From a virus, in the IMG/VR virus record IMGVR_UViG_3300009173_000010, positions 1 through 64,000 of that record: DNA of 64,000 bases; one strand, written 5' to 3'. The stretch's first letter is position 1, and each line of letters starts with the position of its first letter. Of this stretch, positions 2,876-51,854 are shown one piece after another. The notes under the pieces were generated by a model. That model searched no databases. It saw nothing but the letters and a program-made list of their open reading frames with translations, and was not told where the DNA came from. The translations under genes were made by a program, and so were the position numbers.

Positions 2876-5161
2876 ATGGCACAAAGTTCAATTAGAAATT
2901 TAAATATTGATGGAAATTTAGTTATTTCCGGTAGTACCACACAGTTAGATGTGAATACAATTGTTGTTGATGATAATAATATTACTATTAATGATATTAC
3001 AACACCAACTGATGCAACTGCTAATCAGGGTGGATTAACATTAAAAGGTACAACCGATAAAACAATTAACTGGGTTGATGCAAATGATGCATGGACATTA
3101 AGTGAGCATTTAGATATAGCAGATACTAAAGGATATCGAATTAATAATGTTTCAGTATTAACTGCAACTACACTTGGTAGTTCTGTTATTAATAGTAGTT
3201 TAACAAGCATTGGAACATTAACTGAATTAACTGTTGATAACATTAAAATTGATGGTTCTAATATTGGACTACTAACTGATTTAGATTTAATTACTCTAAC
3301 AAACAATACTGTTACAGTATTAGGTGCCGTTCATGCTACAACATTGCATGGCGATGGCAATGCAGTTACAAATTTAAATACATCATCATTTTCGGCACCA
3401 GGAAGTAATGGCGATATAATTATAAATTCATCTGGTGGATTGGGTGCAATATCTACAGTTCCTTTGGCCCAAGGTGGTACAGGTGGCACAGATGCTGATA
3501 CAGCAAAAACTAATTTAGGTTTAGGTACTGGTAGTTCACCAACCTTTGGTAGTACAAACGGCGGCCATGGCGCCGTTCACATTGAAGCACATCCAGATGG
3601 CTCAACACTTAAAACGGCTGGCCTTTTGCAACGAAGTCTTCCACCGGCTGCCGGCTCTGGCCATAGATTTTTTACTGGTATAGGCGACGCAAATGGTAGT
3701 TATTTAATTTCACATAAAGTTACAAGCGATGCTGGTGTCGATTCCGGAACTGCAAAAGTTTATTTTTGGACAACAGATATTGGAAATAAAGTATACCTTG
3801 GTGGTACTTATCCTTCCGCAACAACAACGAATGCTTATATTAATGGTTTAGCATATCCAACAGCAGATGGTTCTAATGGTCAAGTTATGACTACAAATGG
3901 CGCAGGCACATTAAGTTTTACAAGTGTTTCTGGAATAGGCGCATTGTTGGCGTCAAACAATTTAAGTGATTTAGCAAGTGCCGCAACATCAAGAACTAAC
4001 TTAGGATTAGGTACATCAGCAACACAAAATTCGGGTGTGTTTGCACAAGTTGCTAATAATTTAAGTGATGTTACAGCCGCAACAACAAGAACTAATTTAG
4101 GTATTACAGCAACAGGCGCAGATACTGCTTATGCATTTAGAGCAAATAATTTAAGTGATGTTACAGCCGCAACAGCAAGAACTAACTTAGGCGTAACAGC
4201 AACAGGTGCTGATACCGCTTATAGTTTTAGAGCAAATAATCTAAGTGATTTAGCAAATGCCGCAACAGCAAGAACTAACTTAGGCGTAACAGCAACAGGT
4301 GCTGATACTGCATATAATTTTCGAGCAAACAATTTAAGTGATTTAGCAAATGCCGCAACAGCAAGAACTAACTTAGGGTTAGGTACAATTGCTACACAAG
4401 CCGCTAATGCTGTTGACATTGACGGTGGTGCAATTGATGGCGCAACAATTGGCGCTAACTCAGCACAACCTGCAACAGTTACAACATTTACTTCAACTGG
4501 TATCGATGATAATGCTTCTTCAACTGCAATGACAATTGCTTCTAATCAAGATACAACGTTCGCGCAAGGCATTAAAGTTGGTAATATAGCAGGTGCCGCA
4601 GGCGCAGGTAACATACGTTGGTCAGGCACAGACTTCCAAGGACATGATGGTAGTAATTGGCAATCATTAACAAGTGCCGCAACTGCTTCGGTAAGTGGTA
4701 ACATTGCAACATTTACAACAACACAAGCAATAACAGGTACATCATATGCTGATGTTCCTGGGTATACAACAGCAATTACAGTAACAAATTCAAATATTAT
4801 TAATGTACAAGTTAACGTTGATTTACTCGCGCCCGCCACTTCCTTCCTGTCTTATCTTAAATTGGTAAGAGTTATAGGTGGTACACCTACAGATTTATAT
4901 GAAGATGAAAGCGGCTCGTCGTCTAATGAAAATCCCAATCATTTTAATATTTCATATGCAGATGCCCATGGCCAAGCAAACGGTACTGTTATTACATATA
5001 AACTAATGGCAAAAGTATCGGGTAATACATTAACTGTTAATCCGTATGCAAACAATGCACAAATTTTCGTTTATGAAATTACAACAAGTCCAACCGCAGT
5101 TACATCAGTATGGGGCCAGACTGGCGACGTTACTTCAGCCGACTGGGGCTCGGTAGCATAA
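2876..5161 (+). CDS. Repeat-containing tail fibre/virion appendage protein
   Basis: Gly/Thr/Ala/Asn-rich; tandem NNLSD..AATARTNLG repeats; DGSNGQVMTTNGAGTLSF fibre-type motif; late promoter. Confidence 0.7.
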   Translation: MAQSSIRNLNIDGNLVISGSTTQLDVNTIVVDDNNITINDITTPTDATANQGGLTLKGTTDKTINWVDANDAWTLSEHLDIADTKGYRINNVSVLTATTLGSSVINSSLTSIGTLTELTVDNIKIDGSNIGLLTDLDLITLTNNTVTVLGAVHATTLHGDGNAVTNLNTSSFSAPGSNGDIIINSSGGLGAISTVPLAQGGTGGTDADTAKTNLGLGTGSSPTFGSTNGGHGAVHIEAHPDGSTLKTAGLLQRSLPPAAGSGHRFFTGIGDANGSYLISHKVTSDAGVDSGTAKVYFWTTDIGNKVYLGGTYPSATTTNAYINGLAYPTADGSNGQVMTTNGAGTLSFTSVSGIGALLASNNLSDLASAATSRTNLGLGTSATQNSGVFAQVANNLSDVTAATTRTNLGITATGADTAYAFRANNLSDVTAATARTNLGVTATGADTAYSFRANNLSDLANAATARTNLGVTATGADTAYNFRANNLSDLANAATARTNLGLGTIATQAANAVDIDGGAIDGATIGANSAQPATVTTFTSTGIDDNASSTAMTIASNQDTTFAQGIKVGNIAGAAGAGNIRWSGTDFQGHDGSNWQSLTSAATASVSGNIATFTTTQAITGTSYADVPGYTTAITVTNSNIINVQVNVDLLAPATSFLSYLKLVRVIGGTPTDLYEDESGSSSNENPNHFNISYADAHGQANGTVITYKLMAKVSGNTLTVNPYANNAQIFVYEITTSPTAVTSVWGQTGDVTSADWGSVA
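3955..4382 (+). repeat. Intragenic tandem repeats encoding (A)NNLSD(L/V)..AATARTNLG
   Basis: About five near-identical ~80-90 nt units visible in both DNA and protein. Confidence 0.85.
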
Positions 5162-5305: not shown

Positions 5306-6739
5306 ATGCCAAATTATGCAGTACAACGTCGACGTGGTACTACTGCCCAACATAGCTCATTTACAGGCCTAGAAGGTGAATTGTCAGTTGATACAACGAA
5401 GGACATTGTTGTTGTTCATGATGGTTCAACAGCAGGCGGCCGAGCAATGCTACGTGAAGACGTAGACAATCTAGCAAATGACGCTATCTCAGGTGATAAA
5501 GTTCATGGTGGTACTATTAGTGGTAGCGTAATCTTAGATGATGGCGCTAACGCAACAACACAATCAGCAGGTAATGCTACAACTTTACTTGCTACAACAG
5601 CATTTGTAACAACAGCAGTTGCAGGTGAAAACACACTAGCGGAGATGGGCGATGTTGCTCTTTCAACTCCAGCAGATGCCGCATTACTATTATACGACAC
5701 AGGCTCTTCAACTTGGAGAGATGCGGCTATGTCAGGCGATGCAACAATCAGCGACACTGGTGCAATTACAGTTTCTGGTTCTGCTACAGCAGATGCATGG
5801 TCAACAGCAAGAACATTGTCCTTTACAGGCGATGTAACTGGCTCAGGTTCAGTAGATGGCTCAGGCAACGTAGCAACCGCTTTAACAATCGCAGCAGATT
5901 CAGTTGCACTAGGTACCGATACTACTGGTAACTATGTGTTGTCAGTTGCAGACTCAGGCGGCGGCAATATTACAGTTACTAATGGTGTAGCAGAGGGTGG
6001 TGCAGTAACACTTAATACCGCACAAGATATCGCTACAGGTGATTCACCAACATTTGTTGGTTTAACACTTACTGGCGACTTAACTGTTGGTGGTACAACA
6101 ACTACAGTTAACTCAACTGTTGTTTCAATTGCAGACGCAATGATTCAGTTAGCATCAGGTAACTCATCCGCGACAGCCGCTTACATTGGTATGCAGGCAG
6201 AGCGCGGTAGCGGCTCGTTCGGAGATCCAGATGCATACTTTGTTTGGGAAGAATCATCAGATCGTTGGAGAGCAACAACTTCACCAGATGGTACAAATCA
6301 CACAGATGCAAATATGCAATGTGGTACACTAAATGGTACAGCAACAGCCGCTCTATATTCTGACTTAGCAGAACGCTATTCATCAGATGCAGTATACGAA
6401 GCCGGCACAGTTGTTAGTTTTGGTGGCGCAAACGAAGTTACACAAAGTACAGAAATGTATGATACTCGTGTAGCAGGCGTTGTTTCTACTAATCCAGCAC
6501 ATTTAATGAATGCCGAAGCAGGCACAAACGAAACTCATCCAGCAATCGCACTAAGCGGTCGCGTTCCAGTAAAAGTTATGGGTACAGTACGCAAGGGCGA
6601 CCTAATGGTAACATCAGCACAAACTGGTGTAGCAATGGCCGCAGACGAGCGTGTAACAGGAGCAATCATTGGTAAGGCTATTGAAGCACATACTGGTGAA
6701 GGTATTGGTGTTATTGAAGTTCTAATTGCAATGATGTAA
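5306..6739 (+). CDS. Tail fibre/spike-like protein with Mtd-N-like N-terminus and C-terminal chaperone/peptidase-G2-like domain
   Basis: N-terminal QRRRGTTAQHSSFTGLEGELSVDT; C-terminal SDLAERY...GVVSTNP...GRVPVKV...IIGKA. Confidence 0.7.
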   Translation: MPNYAVQRRRGTTAQHSSFTGLEGELSVDTTKDIVVVHDGSTAGGRAMLREDVDNLANDAISGDKVHGGTISGSVILDDGANATTQSAGNATTLLATTAFVTTAVAGENTLAEMGDVALSTPADAALLLYDTGSSTWRDAAMSGDATISDTGAITVSGSATADAWSTARTLSFTGDVTGSGSVDGSGNVATALTIAADSVALGTDTTGNYVLSVADSGGGNITVTNGVAEGGAVTLNTAQDIATGDSPTFVGLTLTGDLTVGGTTTTVNSTVVSIADAMIQLASGNSSATAAYIGMQAERGSGSFGDPDAYFVWEESSDRWRATTSPDGTNHTDANMQCGTLNGTATAALYSDLAERYSSDAVYEAGTVVSFGGANEVTQSTEMYDTRVAGVVSTNPAHLMNAEAGTNETHPAIALSGRVPVKVMGTVRKGDLMVTSAQTGVAMAADERVTGAIIGKAIEAHTGEGIGVIEVLIAMM

Positions 6740-46633: not shown

Positions 46634-47596
46634 ATGGATATAACTTTGTTATGGATGATCCTAGGTTTTATGTTAGCCGCATATTCTGTTGTTGCTAATG
46701 ATAGTGTACAAACCTTAGGTCCATGGCTAGCATCAAATTCAGAAAAATTTAAATGGTATACTTTATGGGCCGCCGCTTCGATTGGTCTATTAATAACTAT
46801 GTGGTATGGGTGGTATATTAATGCAGGTGATATATCATTTGGTAGATTAAATAAAATACCATTTCAAGAAGTGCAATGGTATCATGCTACAGCACCAGCC
46901 ATACTTTTATTGTTAACGCGAATAGGCGTTCCAGTTTCAACCTCATTCCTAGTGTTATCGGCATTTGCTAGTACATTTGTATTGGAAAAAATGCTTGTAA
47001 AATCTGTTATGGGTTATGCATTGGCCGCAGTTGTTGCGTATTGTTTATGGATTGTTTTAGAACGATTAATTGATGAAAAACATGATAAAGTAAAAGAACA
47101 CCATAAAAGATATTGGCGTGTTGCTCAATGGGGCACAACTGGGTTTTTATGGTATACTTGGTTATCACACGATATGGCAAATATTGCTGTATTCCTCCCA
47201 CGAGCATTGTCTATAGAATGGATGCTTTTTATATCTGTTGTATTTGTAGTGTTCTTAGGATATACATTTCGAGAACATGGCGGCAAAATTCAAGAAATTG
47301 TTTTAGAAAAAACAGGCACTAGGTATGTTCGATCAGCAACAATAATTAATTTAGTTTATGCATTCATATTGTTATTCTTTAAAGAATTAAATGACATTCC
47401 TATGAGTACAACTTGGGTGTTTGTTGGATTGCTATGTGGACGAGAACTTGCTATATCAACTGTTATGGAAAATTATAAATTCAAGCACGTATTTCCAATT
47501 GTAGGAAGAGACTTTCTTAAAATGATGTTAGGATTAATAGTTTCAGTTGGAATAGTATTGGCAATACATTATGTAATTATACCTTACGGTTATTGA
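46634..47596 (+). CDS. Polytopic membrane protein, PiT/PHO4 phosphate-transporter-like
   Basis: About 9-10 TM segments; ANDSVQ and HDMAN repeats, PVSTS and PMSTT motifs resemble PiT signatures. Confidence 0.6.
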   Translation: MDITLLWMILGFMLAAYSVVANDSVQTLGPWLASNSEKFKWYTLWAAASIGLLITMWYGWYINAGDISFGRLNKIPFQEVQWYHATAPAILLLLTRIGVPVSTSFLVLSAFASTFVLEKMLVKSVMGYALAAVVAYCLWIVLERLIDEKHDKVKEHHKRYWRVAQWGTTGFLWYTWLSHDMANIAVFLPRALSIEWMLFISVVFVVFLGYTFREHGGKIQEIVLEKTGTRYVRSATIINLVYAFILLFFKELNDIPMSTTWVFVGLLCGRELAISTVMENYKFKHVFPIVGRDFLKMMLGLIVSVGIVLAIHYVIIPYGY

Positions 47597-47668
47597 TCAA
47601 TTGTATAAATAAAATAAAAGAAAATTTAGTTCTATTCCGAGCAAAATTTTTTTGACTGGAGAAAACAT

Positions 47669-48499
47669 ATGACACAACTTATTAATCCGGAGAAATTCAC
47701 GGATAGCGTGGGCCGTTTACGGTCCTTTTTTTTGAACAAAGGATTTCAAGAAGTACATACGCAAAATCGTTTAAGTATATTAGCGGCATGCGAAGATCCA
47801 ACAACTGTCTCAACATATAATTACGCCGGCCAAGTTTGGCCGTTACCGCAAACAGGACAGATGTGGTTAGAATACGAGTTACTTACTAAGCCTGAGGTTC
47901 CGGGCTTTTTTTGTGTCTCAACATCATATAGGCAAGAGCCTAATGCTATACCTGGTAGGCATGATCTTATATTTCCTATGTTTGAATTCGAAATGCCAGG
48001 GGATATTAATGACTTATATCGAATGGAATTGGATTTATGCGAAGCAGTAGGCTTTTCATCAATTGATGCAATTACATCAAAAGATTACACTGATTGGTCA
48101 GCGGAATTTGGCGTTGAAGAATTAACACATGCAGAAGAAACTGCAATGTATGAAAAGTACGGTAATGTACAAATGATTCGAAACTTTCCAAATTACACAA
48201 GTCCATTTTGGAACATGAAACAAAATGGTGATGGAACAGCCGCAAAAATTGATGTAATTATTTGTGGACAAGAAACAATTGGTTCTGCAGAACGGTCAGC
48301 AGATACAACAGAAATGCATGATATGTTTCACACAATTAGTGATGGGCAATATGCTAGTTTGTTGCATGGAACGTTTGGCAAGGACAGAGTTAACAAAGAA
48401 TTGGACGAATTTTTAAGTCATGATTTTATACCACGTGTAGGCGGCGGCATTGGAATGACTAGATTTATTCGTGCAATGGAAATGTGTAACTTGTTCTAA
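47669..48499 (+). CDS. Class IIb aminoacyl-tRNA synthetase catalytic core lacking an anticodon-binding domain (AsnRS/AspRS paralog; asparagine-synthetase-A-like)
   Basis: Motif 1 RSFF..GFQEVHT, motif 2 YRQE..GRH..FPMFEFE, ETIGSAER, motif 3 GGGIGMTR; only 276 aa with no N-terminal OB fold. Confidence 0.85.
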   Translation: MTQLINPEKFTDSVGRLRSFFLNKGFQEVHTQNRLSILAACEDPTTVSTYNYAGQVWPLPQTGQMWLEYELLTKPEVPGFFCVSTSYRQEPNAIPGRHDLIFPMFEFEMPGDINDLYRMELDLCEAVGFSSIDAITSKDYTDWSAEFGVEELTHAEETAMYEKYGNVQMIRNFPNYTSPFWNMKQNGDGTAAKIDVIICGQETIGSAERSADTTEMHDMFHTISDGQYASLLHGTFGKDRVNKELDEFLSHDFIPRVGGGIGMTRFIRAMEMCNLF

Positions 48500-48508
48500 A
48501 GAATTTGT

Positions 48509-48597
48509 TCCGGAGTGATGGAATTGGTAGACATGCTGGGCGGTTTACTCAGTGTCCTTGGCAGGGCGTGAAGGTTCGAATCCTTCCTCCGGAGCCA
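48509..48597 (+). tRNA. Atypical type-II tRNA, anticodon GTT (Asn), encoded CCA
   Basis: TCCGGAG/CTCCGGA acceptor, ATG-GAATTGGTAGA-CAT D arm, CTGGG-CGGTTTA-CTCAG anticodon arm, GTCCT-TGGC-AGGGC variable arm, GAAGG-TTCGAAT-CCTTC T arm, G73-CCA. Confidence 0.9.
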
Positions 48598-48766
48598 GTT
48601 TTTAATTTTAAGACTTAGGCTTCTTCGGCTTCTTTTTTTCTTTCTTGGGTTTGTCTCTATTTTTACTTTCCATCCTTGTTTTCCTATGGTTCGTGTTGTA
48701 TCTACATCTCCGAACTCGCCCATACTTTTACCAGTTTGTATTTGCCTACTATAATCGTATGGATCT

Positions 48767-49963
48767 TTACCGTTCATCGATCACTGTTGATAATAATTCT
48801 TCTTTGCTAGGTTTGTAGTTTTTAGACTTCCATTCGTCTCGTAACTTTGTTAGTAAAGCACCCATGTTAGGACCAGGTTTTACATCTGCACTAATTAAGT
48901 CTTTTCCTGTTACAGGAAATTCTGGTACTTGCCAACTTCTAATATGATTTGCAATAGCATCTTTGTCTTGTATTTTAGCAAGAGCATAAACAAAATATTG
49001 ATGAGTTTCATCAACTAAAAATTCTTCTGCACTTTGCTGTGTTAGAGGTGTATTTTTAAATTCAGTTAAAAAAGATAAAAGTTGCATTTCTGCATTTGAT
49101 AGTTTCCATGCATTACCTATCGCGTCTACATCTTTTATATTACGCATAAGACTTGCTAAAGGAACAATAGGACTTTGCATTGTACTAACTTTTTCTGCTA
49201 GTGCAATATCATCTAATGGTAGATTAATATTTTTTGTAACGCCTGTTTTTTCTAAATGTACTAATATGTCTTTTACATTGTTACCTAACAGTATCTTTTG
49301 CATTTCCATCCATATACGTTCACCAGAAATTTGTGTTAAACCTTTAACATTGCTTTTTATAGCATCTAATGTATCTTTCTCCCAAGTAGGATTATTAATG
49401 CGTCCTTGGAATCTAAAGTAGCGCAAAATTCTTAAATAATCTTCTTGTATACGTTGTTCCGGTTCACCTACAAATTTACTTACTTTATCTTGTAAGTCAT
49501 TTGCTCCATTAAAATAATCATATACTGTACCGTCTAAATCTAATGACATAGCATTGTATGTTAAATCTCTGCGTTTAGCATCTTCTTCCCAACTACGTAT
49601 AAATTCAACAGTAGCGTGTCTACCAGTATGTTCTGCGTCTGCACGTAACGTTGTAATTTCTAATTGTTCTTTATTAATTACAGCGGTAATTGTTCCGTGC
49701 TGTAATCCTGTTGGAATATACTTAATATTGCCCTTTTCAAACATTTCAACCATTTCGTCTGGTGTAGCATCTGATGCTAAGTCTGTATCTTTGGGCAATT
49801 TGCCAAGCATTAGGTCTCGAACTGCACCACCAACAATACGTAGTTCAAATCCGTTTTTATGAAAAAGGTTACCGAGTGAAACTACACCAGCAGTAAGAAT
49901 TTGTTTAAATTCGTCACTATCTAGTTTTTCTTGTGCCTCAACTAAAAATTCTAATGCTCTCAT
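48767..49963 (-). CDS. cca: CCA-adding tRNA nucleotidyltransferase (class II)
   Basis: VGGAVRD..D.DLA, HGT, EITTLR, DAKRRDLTYNAM, RIQEDYLRILRYFRF, SGERIW, FPVTGKDL. Confidence 0.92.
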   Translation of the reverse strand: MRALEFLVEAQEKLDSDEFKQILTAGVVSLGNLFHKNGFELRIVGGAVRDLMLGKLPKDTDLASDATPDEMVEMFEKGNIKYIPTGLQHGTITAVINKEQLEITTLRADAEHTGRHATVEFIRSWEEDAKRRDLTYNAMSLDLDGTVYDYFNGANDLQDKVSKFVGEPEQRIQEDYLRILRYFRFQGRINNPTWEKDTLDAIKSNVKGLTQISGERIWMEMQKILLGNNVKDILVHLEKTGVTKNINLPLDDIALAEKVSTMQSPIVPLASLMRNIKDVDAIGNAWKLSNAEMQLLSFLTEFKNTPLTQQSAEEFLVDETHQYFVYALAKIQDKDAIANHIRSWQVPEFPVTGKDLISADVKPGPNMGALLTKLRDEWKSKNYKPSKEELLSTVIDER

Positions 49964-50050
49964 ACATATATTTACCAAGATATATATTTGTAATGATTGA
50001 CAAACTGTTATTTTCTGTTATTATTATATAACATAATAAGGAGAATAACA

Positions 50051-50311
50051 ATGTCCCAAGATAATATTATACAATTAAATCCAAATAAATCTGTTTTAGA
50101 TACTGATGATTTGGATACTATTGTAGCCGAGGTAATTGATTACATTGGCGAGGTTGCTGATAACCGCAATCTTCCGTTAAATGATGAATTTGCCAGAGAT
50201 ATGGCTATTGCTATGAGGTTTGTAAGAGCTGGATTTGCCCGTCAAATGGGTGCAGAAACTGACGTAATCCAGGAAGAAATGACAAAATTAGCCGATTTTA
50301 TGCTAAAATAA
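50051..50311 (+). CDS. Hypothetical protein
   Basis: SD AGGAG; TTGACA promoter at 49997. Confidence 0.65.
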   Translation: MSQDNIIQLNPNKSVLDTDDLDTIVAEVIDYIGEVADNRNLPLNDEFARDMAIAMRFVRAGFARQMGAETDVIQEEMTKLADFMLK

Positions 50312-51048: not shown

Positions 51049-51298
51049 CGAAATTAATTTTGTCCATCCGAGCATTTCTGATAAAGATATAGAACTGTTT
51101 GGTTTTGATGATATTGAAAATGTTCCGATTCAGGAGCATTGGATCATGGCCCATATTATGGTTGAGGCAGGCCTATTTACTAGTATAAGCAATGCTCGCA
51201 AAAATGGTTGGAACACGCCTATACCAAAAGGCTTCTGGCAGAAAAAAGTTGGCAAGATGAGAAAGTTGATAAGTATACTAAATGAGTTGGAAGGATAG
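51041..51298 (+). CDS. Stand-alone S4-like RNA-binding domain (TyrRS C-terminal type)
   Basis: IMVEAGLFTSISNARK...GK pattern. Confidence 0.5.
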   Translation: MTNEINFVHPSISDKDIELFGFDDIENVPIQEHWIMAHIMVEAGLFTSISNARKNGWNTPIPKGFWQKKVGKMRKLISILNELEG

Positions 51299-51299
51299 T

Positions 51300-51854
51300 A
51301 TGCGAATTATAGAGGTAGATCAAGAGAACGTGGTTAATAAGGCTTTGGCGTTTGCTAAAGATGCCCACGAATCCATCGGCCAGAAACGAAAGTACACTGG
51401 CGAGGATTACATTGTCCATCCAATAGAAGTTTCACAGATTGTTAAATCGGTTGGCGGATCCGAAGCAATGCAAGCGGCCGCCCTTTTGCACGATACCGTT
51501 GAAGACACAAATGTCACGAATGCGGAAATTGTTGAGCATTTCGGTCCTGCGATCGCTAAACTAGTAAATGAACTAACTGATATAAGTAAACTCGAAGATG
51601 GAAATCGAGCCCTTAGGAAAGAAATGGACAGAGAGCATTCTGCTAGTGCTAGTGCTGATGCACAAACGGTAAAATTGGCTGATTTGATCAGCAACAGCAA
51701 AAGCATCGTAAAACACGATCCAAATTTTGCTAAAGTTTATATTAGAGAAAAAGAGGCTCTTTTGCAGGTGCTAGATAAGGGCAATTCTCGTTTACACGCA
51801 ATCGCGACGAAACAAGTTGCAGATGCGAAAGAAACCCTAAAAATATCAGGGTAA
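51300..51854 (+). CDS. HD-domain (p)ppGpp hydrolase-like protein (SpoT-HD/Mesh1 family)
   Basis: AH..QKRK.TGEDYIVHP, AALLHDTVEDT, LTD, VKLADLISN. Confidence 0.88.
   Translation: MRIIEVDQENVVNKALAFAKDAHESIGQKRKYTGEDYIVHPIEVSQIVKSVGGSEAMQAAALLHDTVEDTNVTNAEIVEHFGPAIAKLVNELTDISKLEDGNRALRKEMDREHSASASADAQTVKLADLISNSKSIVKHDPNFAKVYIREKEALLQVLDKGNSRLHAIATKQVADAKETLKISG

Follow-up and report, generated by a model that had tools for sequence, protein, structure and literature searches.

Can a class IIb aminoacyl-tRNA synthetase without an anticodon-binding domain charge a tRNA of its own? The question is raised by a locus in a 64-kilobase (kb) stretch of viral DNA (positions 1 to 64,000 of IMG/VR record IMGVR_UViG_3300009173_000010; hereafter the window), in which the gene for a synthetase-like protein of 276 amino acids (aa) is followed almost immediately by an unusual tRNA with the anticodon GUU. 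The pair abounds in marine viruses yet is unstudied, and it may be a natural self-contained enzyme-tRNA system. An earlier note on this DNA had described a 276-aa protein with class II motifs 1-3 and no N-terminal OB domain, a non-canonical tRNA(GUU) beginning nine nucleotides (nt) past its stop codon, and a late-promoter-type motif ahead of the open reading frame, all of which are borne out by the present analysis. The features of the locus, all on the + strand, are as follows.

47604-47611, + strand: TATAAATA motif, 57 nt before the ATG at 47669, containing TAAATA at 47606
47669-48499, + strand: stand-alone class IIb (Asn/Asp-type) synthetase catalytic core, 276 aa
48500-48508, + strand: spacer of 9 nt between the stop codon and the 5′ end of the tRNA
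48509-48597, + strand: non-canonical tRNA of 89 nt with anticodon GUU, called tRNA-Asn(gtt) by ARAGORN

The Enzyme and the tRNA Form a Conserved, Mobile Unit

Searches with blastn identified homologs of the enzyme gene in the Prochlorococcus phages P-SSM2, P-SSM5, and P-SSM7, where they are annotated as "tRNA ligase" (PSSM2_198 in P-SSM2, PSSM7_129 in P-SSM7) and where a "tRNA-Asn" of 85-89 nt lies 7-9 nt past each gene. We compared 84 loci, consisting of the window, these three phages, and 80 of at least 595 loci in IMG/VR. The earlier note had proposed scanning downstream of homologs for a tRNA, and the expected co-occurrence is indeed found: a covariance-model search places a family tRNA downstream of the enzyme in 76 of the 84 loci, with a median gap of 7 nt (mostly 4-11, range −5 to 161). 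Among the eight loci without it, one has zero downstream sequence and another has 210 nt. The tRNA was also sought in five whole records of tRNA-less loci, which are 3-26% complete, and was present in none of them.

The linkage holds in the opposite direction. A reverse scan of IMG/VR using the DNA pattern of the tRNA alone returned 80 loci, and in 74 of them the enzyme gene immediately precedes the tRNA in the same orientation. The remainder comprise five loci with <135 nt of upstream sequence and a single unrelated tRNA (L138; G1-C72, A73). Sixty-three of these 80 loci were new, and the enzyme is present in 57 of the 63. Furthermore, no neighbor other than the tRNA is conserved, the most widespread one occurring in 13/83 loci, which argues that the enzyme-tRNA pair moves as a unit. 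Together, these observations show that the enzyme and the tRNA constitute a conserved, mobile, co-located unit rather than a chance arrangement.

None of the titles and abstracts returned by our literature searches concerns the enzyme-tRNA pair. The "tRNA ligase" (T4-GC 194) appears in one table in the accessible part of an earlier study (Sullivan et al., 2010), and the accessible part of another does not mention a synthetase (Sullivan et al., 2005).

Two further observations concern the annotation and surroundings of the pair. In P-SSM2 (L001, NC_006883.2), RefSeq puts the tRNA-Asn PSSM2_199 at 5825-5910, inside the coding sequence PSSM2_205, and both ARAGORN and the family model put it at 3813-3902, directly after PSSM2_198. 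The RefSeq coordinates look stale, since a tRNA right after PSSM2_198 fits the order of the locus tags. In addition, ARAGORN calls phage-encoded transfer-messenger RNAs next to tRNA clusters, at a distance of ∼1-2.7 kb ahead of the pair. Their tag peptides end in ALAA, and they lie on the + strand in L025, L027, L045, L046, and L055 and on the − strand in L054, L062, and L064.

The tRNA Is Constrained and Non-canonical and Carries Asparagine Identity Marks

ARAGORN calls no tRNA other than that at 48509-48597, whether in the window or in the entire 72.8-kb record. Its acceptor stem (UCCGGAG/CUCCGGA) begins with U1-A72 and is followed by G73 and an encoded CCA, while the body has a 3-bp D stem, a Leu/Tyr-like D loop, and a long variable arm (type II). 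The anticodon loop reads C32 G33 G34 U35 U36 U37 A38. The tRNA had previously been described as a chimera, and this description fits, with a type II, Leu-like body joined to the acceptor end and anticodon of tRNA-Asn. Rfam gives a sub-threshold tRNA-Sec match alone (24.7 bits against a gathering score of 47), and RF00005 does not match the identical tRNA of L004 and L006 in record G006, although the tRNA of L013 reaches 51 bits. The family covariance model (R1), built from 31 family tRNAs, scores the window tRNA at 89.4 bits (E value 5e-18). Single-sequence folding gives a minimum-energy structure that is not a cloverleaf (z −1.39). The cloverleaf is instead supported by covariation, with compensatory changes in 18 of 23 pairs across 31 relatives and with the T loop and the D-loop GG in place.

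Across 62 distinct family sequences, on which all of the following statistics are based, U1-A72 is found in 61, G73 in 62, G34 in 62, U35 in 62, and U36 in 61, and CCA is encoded in 59. The pair 2-71 is C-G in 49. According to the available portion of one review, anticodon GUU and G73 are the identity elements of bacterial AsnRS, U1-A72 is a determinant of tRNA-dependent amidation by the amidotransferase, G73 is an antideterminant against LeuRS and TyrRS, and C2-G71 is one against SerRS (PMC9976931). The variable region measures 6 nt in 2 tRNAs, 13-18 nt in 33, and 27-38 nt in 27, and the D stem has 3 bp. The type I body of bacterial tRNA-Asn, with its short variable loop and 4-bp D stem, is therefore not the body of this family.

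The anticodon loop departs from decoding norms, as the earlier note had suspected from the window tRNA. Position 33 is U in 44 tRNAs, A in 9, C in 7, and G in 2, and position 37 is U in 50, A in 9, C in 2, and G in 1, so that a purine at 37 occurs in 10/62. By contrast, all 37 ordinary tRNAs taken from these loci and aligned with the same model have both U33 and a purine at 37. A fully canonical CUGUUAA loop is present in 9/62 family tRNAs. Together, these data show that the tRNA is real, constrained, and non-canonical, and that it bears the identity marks of tRNA-Asn.

In the 27 tRNAs with variable regions of 27-38 nt, the arm folds into a hairpin of ∼10 bp (L034, L039, L044-L047, L051, L054, L055, L059, L062, L069, L078, L079, L082, and others). 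The sequence of this arm (...TGTACTGCAATATATTTA...) is kept across loci although other stems differ, and ARAGORN miscalls these long-arm tRNAs, among others as Asp(atc), Asn(att), and Ile(aat). One locus, L018, has a tRNA (3868-3966) with the loop CUGUCGA, hence anticodon GUC and G37; the pocket residues of its enzyme are as in the rest of the family. Finally, in the 158-kb record G007 a family tRNA coexists with a second, canonical tRNA-Asn of 75 nt whose loop reads CUGUUAA.

The Protein Is a Free-Standing Catalytic Core Nearest to AsnRS

The 276-aa protein matches the Pfam family tRNA-synt_2 (PF00152, class II D/K/N) with an E value of 1.4e-11 and 44.4 bits (cut-off 25). Residues 16-269 align to positions 31-291 of the 308-position profile, which is the catalytic domain only. 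The protein also matches PHROG 29758 ("unknown function") with an E value of 5e-118. Class II motif 1 (GFQEVHTQ), motif 2 (FCVSTSYRQE...GRH...FEFE), and motif 3 (PRVGGGIGMTR) are all there, the ATP- and amino-acid-binding columns are kept across the enzyme family, and so is a motif-2 loop of the form EPNxxPGRH. An N-terminal OB-fold domain cannot be accommodated, since the open frame upstream of the ATG at 47669 adds at most 13 residues. We also considered a split synthetase whose anticodon-binding domain is encoded separately; this was rejected, as PF01336 (OB domain) was detected in 0/5 whole records (that of the window and those of four relatives, two of them 100% complete), with 14/14 control genomes positive, and no neighboring gene is conserved.

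Curated models do not claim the protein. The canonical AsnRS models TIGR00457 and NF003037 give it 24.9 bits against 414 and 19.1 bits against 342.6, both short of the cut-offs, and the archaeal AsnRS-like asparagine synthetase models (NF005052-5) give 17.7 bits against 322 and 16.8 bits against 389. For the EpmA/GenX models, the best E value in the family is 1.8e-9, under the cut-offs of 264 and 287 bits. Indeed, no enzyme-family member among those scored reaches an NCBIfam cut-off.

A phmmer search of the PDB with the single window protein gave zero matches, whereas the family profile, which is required for detection, has eukaryotic and archaeal AsnRS as its best matches (2.5e-14), together with archaeal-type AspRS; archaeal asparagine synthetase (8e-7) and EpmA (3e-5) rank lower. 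With hhalign, E. coli AsnRS scores 96% over 243 columns (AsnRS residues 141-452), EpmA 93.8% over 241 columns, and AspRS 85.6% (partial), while homology to E. coli AsnA is undetectable at 3.3%.

The structure predicted for the window protein by AlphaFold2 (predicted local distance difference test score, pLDDT, 96.8; predicted template-modeling score, pTM, 0.93) has the antiparallel-sheet fold of class II. Foldseek and VIA-align superpose it on the catalytic domains of AsnRS, AspRS, and LysRS with Z scores of 23-28 over ∼245-250 residues. The top VIA-align match is the catalytic domain of AsnRS (Z 27.9, root-mean-square deviation [rmsd] 2.1, 248 residues), and the seven top entries are all AsnRS (Z 27.9-26.8), followed by archaeal and eukaryotic AspRS (26.5-25), archaeal asparagine synthetase A (24.4-23.9), EpmA (23.9-23.4), and LysRS. 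Archaeal asparagine synthetase A (3rex) covers nearly the whole model (Z 24.4, rmsd 2.6, 244 residues). Searches of the ESM Atlas returned the enzyme's own viral family and nothing else.

The amino-acid pocket may likewise resemble that of AsnRS. At the positions of Lys198-Gln199 and Asp233 of AspRS, the protein has Leu67-Glu68 and Glu106, which align with the AsnRS residues; these positions presumably discriminate Asp from Asn. E. coli AspRS has QSPQLFKQ and QIDVE where the enzyme family has QTGQMWLE and MFEFE, and AsnRS has QSSQLYLE with VEAE or VSGQLNGE with MLEPE. We assign the protein as a free-standing catalytic core of the class IIb Asn/Asp branch, with AsnRS as its nearest relative.

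The Enzyme Family Extends beyond the tRNA-Linked Clade

Clustering at 50% gives 656 representatives of the enzyme family, and clustering at 90% gives at least 8000 clusters. In a wider scan centered on a distant family member, which yielded 80 loci and took in contigs of giant-virus metagenome-assembled genomes (MAGs) and contigs of 200-500 kb, all proteins are stand-alone cores of 270-323 aa. The closest match in BFVD is a protein of Pithovirus LCPAC304 (A0A481Z9R2; 46% identity, TM score 0.96). Stand-alone synthetase cores in this virus and in the giant-virus MAG loci (L242, L244, L248, L252, L260, and others) show that the family spans viruses of bacteria and of eukaryotes; the giant-virus copies adjoin genes for mRNA capping, BTB, and HSP70 proteins. 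So far the family has been seen in viruses alone, the genome scans having covered those of viruses. Queries of IMG/VR with the distant single proteins P0106 and P0064 returned nothing.

In a quick maximum-likelihood tree (IQ-TREE, 129 rows), the tRNA-linked rows fall essentially into one clade (Shimodaira-Hasegawa-like approximate likelihood-ratio test 98) of 71 rows, 65 of them with the tRNA. This clade consists of marine T4-like phages, namely the virus of the window, P-SSM2, P-SSM5, P-SSM7, and numerous uncultured relatives. The two exceptions outside this clade carry a family-type tRNA 217 nt (L251) and ∼1 kb (L247) downstream of the enzyme. The tRNA-linked and tRNA-less groups have 85 conserved columns in common, all catalytic ones included.

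Two members look like fusions, P0003 joining dihydroorotate dehydrogenase to a synthetase-like domain and P0040 joining a synthetase-like domain to OMP decarboxylase. A DHO_dh-like gene also lies upstream of the enzyme in 4/83 loci (e.g., L073:2100-2798).

The Pair Is Probably Transcribed as One Late Unit

The motif TATAAATA, which we take to be the T4-type late-promoter consensus, has seven + strand copies and a single − strand copy in the window, and it lies within 150 nt upstream of the enzyme gene in 23/69 distinct relatives' regions, those of P-SSM2 and P-SSM7 included. Metatranscriptome data contain parts of the region in 4 runs from 4 studies, as contigs that give neither strand nor level and to which DNA carry-over may contribute. 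Contigs of three studies start at 47643-47647, and depth falls to about zero at 47544-47604 in the two RNA libraries that also cover the upstream gene; the two together hint weakly at where the 5′ end of a transcript may lie. The junction between gene and tRNA is bridged by two RNA-library contigs (48089-49073 and 48398-48548). The enzyme gene and the tRNA probably form one transcription unit that is expressed late in infection.

Possible Roles of the Enzyme-tRNA Pair

We tentatively favor the reading that the protein is a minimal, anticodon-blind enzyme of the AsnRS type that charges tRNA-Asn-type acceptors and that has, in this phage clade, a private tRNA. The enzyme would use ATP to activate asparagine and would attach it, as an ester, to the 3′ terminus of tRNA-Asn-type acceptors, reading the acceptor end (G73 and U1-A72) and not the anticodon, for which it has no binding domain. 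The cassette tRNA would be its private substrate. Charging of the type II body by host LeuRS, TyrRS, and SerRS would be prevented by G73 and by the pair 2-71, which is mostly C-G, and the altered loop and body might serve to avoid host AsnRS or tRNA-cutting defenses. The resulting Asn-tRNA(GUU) would then supply late protein synthesis at AAY codons by way of the unusual loop, or another step that consumes Asn-tRNA. A direct dependence between enzyme and tRNA is favored because this type of tRNA has never been found without the enzyme and because its body seems built against other synthetases.

Several observations weigh against this reading. To our knowledge, the characterized class IIb paralogs without the domain (AsnA, archaeal asparagine synthetase, and EpmA) are all tRNA independent. 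The enzyme-family proteins are acidic, with a median pI of 4.7. An enzyme without an anticodon-binding domain leaves the invariant anticodon unexplained, which host AsnRS or the ribosome would explain. Nor is there evidence that the pocket and the anticodon are coupled, since the pocket is unaltered in the enzyme of L018, which accompanies the sole GUC tRNA. Close relatives have the enzyme without a nearby tRNA in 7/83 cases, and the tightness of the linkage could in part stem from a promoter that both genes use, without either depending biochemically on the other. Outside the tRNA-linked clade, the tRNA is missing in 54/56 tree rows, and two 100%-complete jumbo phage genomes encode the enzyme together with canonical tRNA-Asn within tRNA clusters; neither of the two contains a type II GUU tRNA. 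A tailoring of the enzyme to its tRNA is made less likely by the wider scan, in which the same family with the same active site occurs without a family-type tRNA in 66/80 loci, giant-virus contigs among them (the tRNA being present in 14, 8 of which had been found previously). We looked for enzyme changes special to the tRNA-linked clade and rejected them as signs of adaptation, the clade-specific columns being 11 peripheral ones (M1, T2, Q3, L4, P7, T11, P110, W143, I170, G189, and L231), none in the active site.

A doubtful but still live alternative is that the enzyme makes free asparagine from aspartate and ammonia, as an asparagine synthetase that needs no tRNA, and that the tRNA is a helper charged by host AsnRS or by non-discriminating AspRS (ND-AspRS) with GatCAB, a shared promoter accounting for the linkage. 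There is precedent in AsnA and archaeal asparagine synthetase, described in the accessible parts of two reports as relatives of AspRS and AsnRS that consist of the catalytic core only (PMC3532385, PMC2330236). The alternative stays alive because the family elsewhere, in viruses of bacteria and of eukaryotes alike, is mostly tRNA-less with the same conserved columns and the tRNA-linked clade has no active-site change of its own. It also stays alive because the known domain-less paralogs are tRNA independent and because the invariant positions of the tRNA, the anticodon and G73, are those that host AsnRS targets. Size agrees as well (archaeal chains of 285-294 residues against 276 aa), as does the nearly complete superposition of archaeal asparagine synthetase A on the model (Z 24.4, rmsd 2.6, 244 residues). 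However, hhalign to E. coli AsnA stands at 3.3%, the archaeal AsnA models are matched weakly by 11/50 and 13/51 members and always behind AsnRS and ND-AspRS, and the fold match lies ∼3.5 Z units under that of AsnRS. Free asparagine synthesis would also leave unexplained the type II body, the variable N33, and the pyrimidine at 37, as well as why a phage has the cassette tRNA alongside a canonical tRNA-Asn and why this tRNA type is never found without the enzyme.

The release of positions 33 and 37 disfavors an ordinary decoder and makes a non-ribosomal or loop-directed role possible. Two readings take this further. One is a natural, virus-borne orthogonal pair, made up of a minimal, anticodon-blind class IIb synthetase and a purpose-built tRNA for which decoding is not the main task. 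In this pair GUU would be an identity tag for a downstream partner, and the charged tRNA would feed a non-ribosomal reaction late in infection or a specialized low-efficiency or recoding event at AAY codons. We regard this reading as unlikely. The other, which we consider similarly improbable, is that the enzyme acts on or with the tRNA outside decoding, by aminoacylating the loop, by using the tRNA to carry an aminoacyl group to a non-ribosomal acceptor (a protein, the envelope, or a nucleic acid), or by aminoacylating a protein as EpmA does. GluQRS/YadB, a truncated GluRS paralog, acts on Q34 of tRNA-Asp and provides an analogy. Consistent with such a role, positions 33 and 37 are unconstrained, against 37/37 in ordinary tRNAs, while 34-36 are invariant; EpmA aligns by hhalign at 93.8% over 241 columns, and EpmA models match 37/51 tRNA-less members. 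On the other hand, no conserved transferase or acceptor gene lies nearby, the 9/62 tRNAs with a fully canonical CUGUUAA loop do not fit, the invariant U1-A72, G73, and CCA suggest ordinary chemistry at the 3′ end, and the fold is closer to AsnRS than to EpmA (Z 27.9 versus 23.9).

A part in aspartate or pyrimidine metabolism, such as ATP-driven chemistry on aspartate or carbamoyl-aspartate with an incidental tRNA link, would account for the fusion-like P0003 and P0040 and for the DHO_dh-like upstream gene, but it is highly improbable, as the two fusions are found among 12 longer forms scanned (150 representatives listed) and may be gene-calling read-through, a pyr-like neighbor occurs in 4/83 loci versus the tRNA in 76/84, and the columns that bind the alpha-amino acid are AsnRS-like.

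Neighboring Genes and the Source Virus

The window represents part of the genome of a T4-like myovirus, and its source virus record, of 72.8 kb, is rated 20% complete. It encodes a prohead protease, the major head protein, tail sheath and tube, terminase, a gp32-like single-stranded DNA-binding protein, UvsX, UvsY, helicases, and primase. Seawater metagenome runs contain DNA near-identical to the window. The gene that faces the pair is the following.

48767-49978, − strand: probable CCA-adding enzyme gene, convergent with the enzyme-tRNA pair and outside the conserved unit

Its product matches the Pfam PolyA_pol head domain (E value 6.4e-35, 120.7 bits) and scores 224.3 bits against NF009814 (cut-off 290). 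The earlier note had counted this gene as a third member of the module, pointing toward the pair and served by a late promoter of its own. The orientation is as described, and the promoter is not: the upstream region of the gene contains no TATAAATA and has instead a sigma-70-like match, TTGTTA-17-TATAAT, at 50051-50023 (− strand, 10/12 positions). Membership in the module was rejected, since a homolog lies within 3 kb in 0/83 related loci and CCA is already encoded in 59/62 family tRNAs. The CCA-adding enzyme is an unrelated neighbor of the pair. At 49997-50051, between this gene and the next gene on the + strand, sigma-70-like matches stand back to back, with TTGACA-16-TATTAT (11/12) on the + strand opposite the − strand match.

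Three other reading frames deserve mention. A membrane protein of 320 aa (46634-47596, + strand) has a sub-threshold match to the PHO4 phosphate-transporter family (29 bits, cut-off 33.7), and a PHO4-like homolog adjoins the synthetase-like gene in 4/83 related loci. A 190-aa HD_4/HD-domain phosphohydrolase is encoded at 51282-51854 (+ strand; E value 2.4e-21). The HD_4 Pfam family takes in (p)ppGpp hydrolase domains of the RelA/SpoT type, and the product may be a phage alarmone hydrolase. A 93-aa open reading frame at 48496-48777 (− strand) overlaps the stop of the CCA gene by 11 nt and runs antisense across the entire tRNA. It has no PHROG match and may be spurious, or may be a small gene whose end falls antisense inside the tRNA.

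Comparison with Known Systems

If the enzyme does charge the tRNA, we would know of no earlier class IIb synthetase shown to function without an anticodon-binding domain. The pair would also stand out as one of few natural examples in which a synthetase is linked to a tRNA that its scaffold sets apart, and it occurs in some of the ocean's most abundant viruses. It would offer a compact candidate pair for genetic-code engineering and insight into how phages supply Asn-tRNA or evade tRNA-directed defenses, and it would explain a cyanophage gene annotated just as "tRNA ligase." Should the enzyme instead make asparagine, it would represent a third, virus-specific recruitment of the synthetase core for asparagine synthesis, with the odd tRNA still to be explained.

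Among the systems compared, AsnRS shares with the phage enzyme the catalytic fold, motifs 1-3, the best profile, hhalign, and structure matches, and similar residues at the positions aligned to K198/Q199/D233 of AspRS. The phage enzyme differs in that it has no OB domain, measures 276 aa against 420-470, falls far under the curated cut-offs, and belongs to a family so far seen in viruses alone. Archaeal asparagine synthetase (PDB 3p8t and 3reu; Pyrococcus) and E. coli AsnA are likewise stand-alone class II cores that are comparable in size and have no domain for binding tRNA, but the sequence and fold of the phage enzyme are nearer to true AsnRS and AspRS. We know of no dedicated-tRNA linkage for the known asparagine synthetases.

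EpmA/GenX, the EF-P lysine ligase, and GluQRS/YadB are also truncated paralogs without an anticodon-binding domain, and they act on non-standard acceptors. Unlike EpmA, the phage enzyme has no EF-P-like acceptor linked to it, its pocket is of the Asn/Asp type and not the Lys type, and its fold scores 23.9 against EpmA and 27.9 against AsnRS; unlike GluQRS, which is a class I enzyme, it belongs to class II.

Phage tRNAs with changes in the anticodon loop have been proposed to dodge host anticodon nucleases, as set out in the available part of that work (van den Berg et al., 2023; PMC10264068). Those tRNAs resemble the present family in being phage encoded and in having loops that are off the host norm outside the anticodon. 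As far as the available text describes them, they are otherwise ordinary and have no dedicated enzyme, whereas here a re-engineered body comes with a synthetase-like gene.

A comparison that extends only to how such a pair might work is with PylRS and tRNA(Pyl), in which pylS and pylT are adjacent, the tRNA scaffold is unusual, and the anticodon is not read. PylRS differs in being of class IIc and not IIb, and in serving a stop codon and a new amino acid, where the phage pair has a GUU sense anticodon and probably a standard amino acid.

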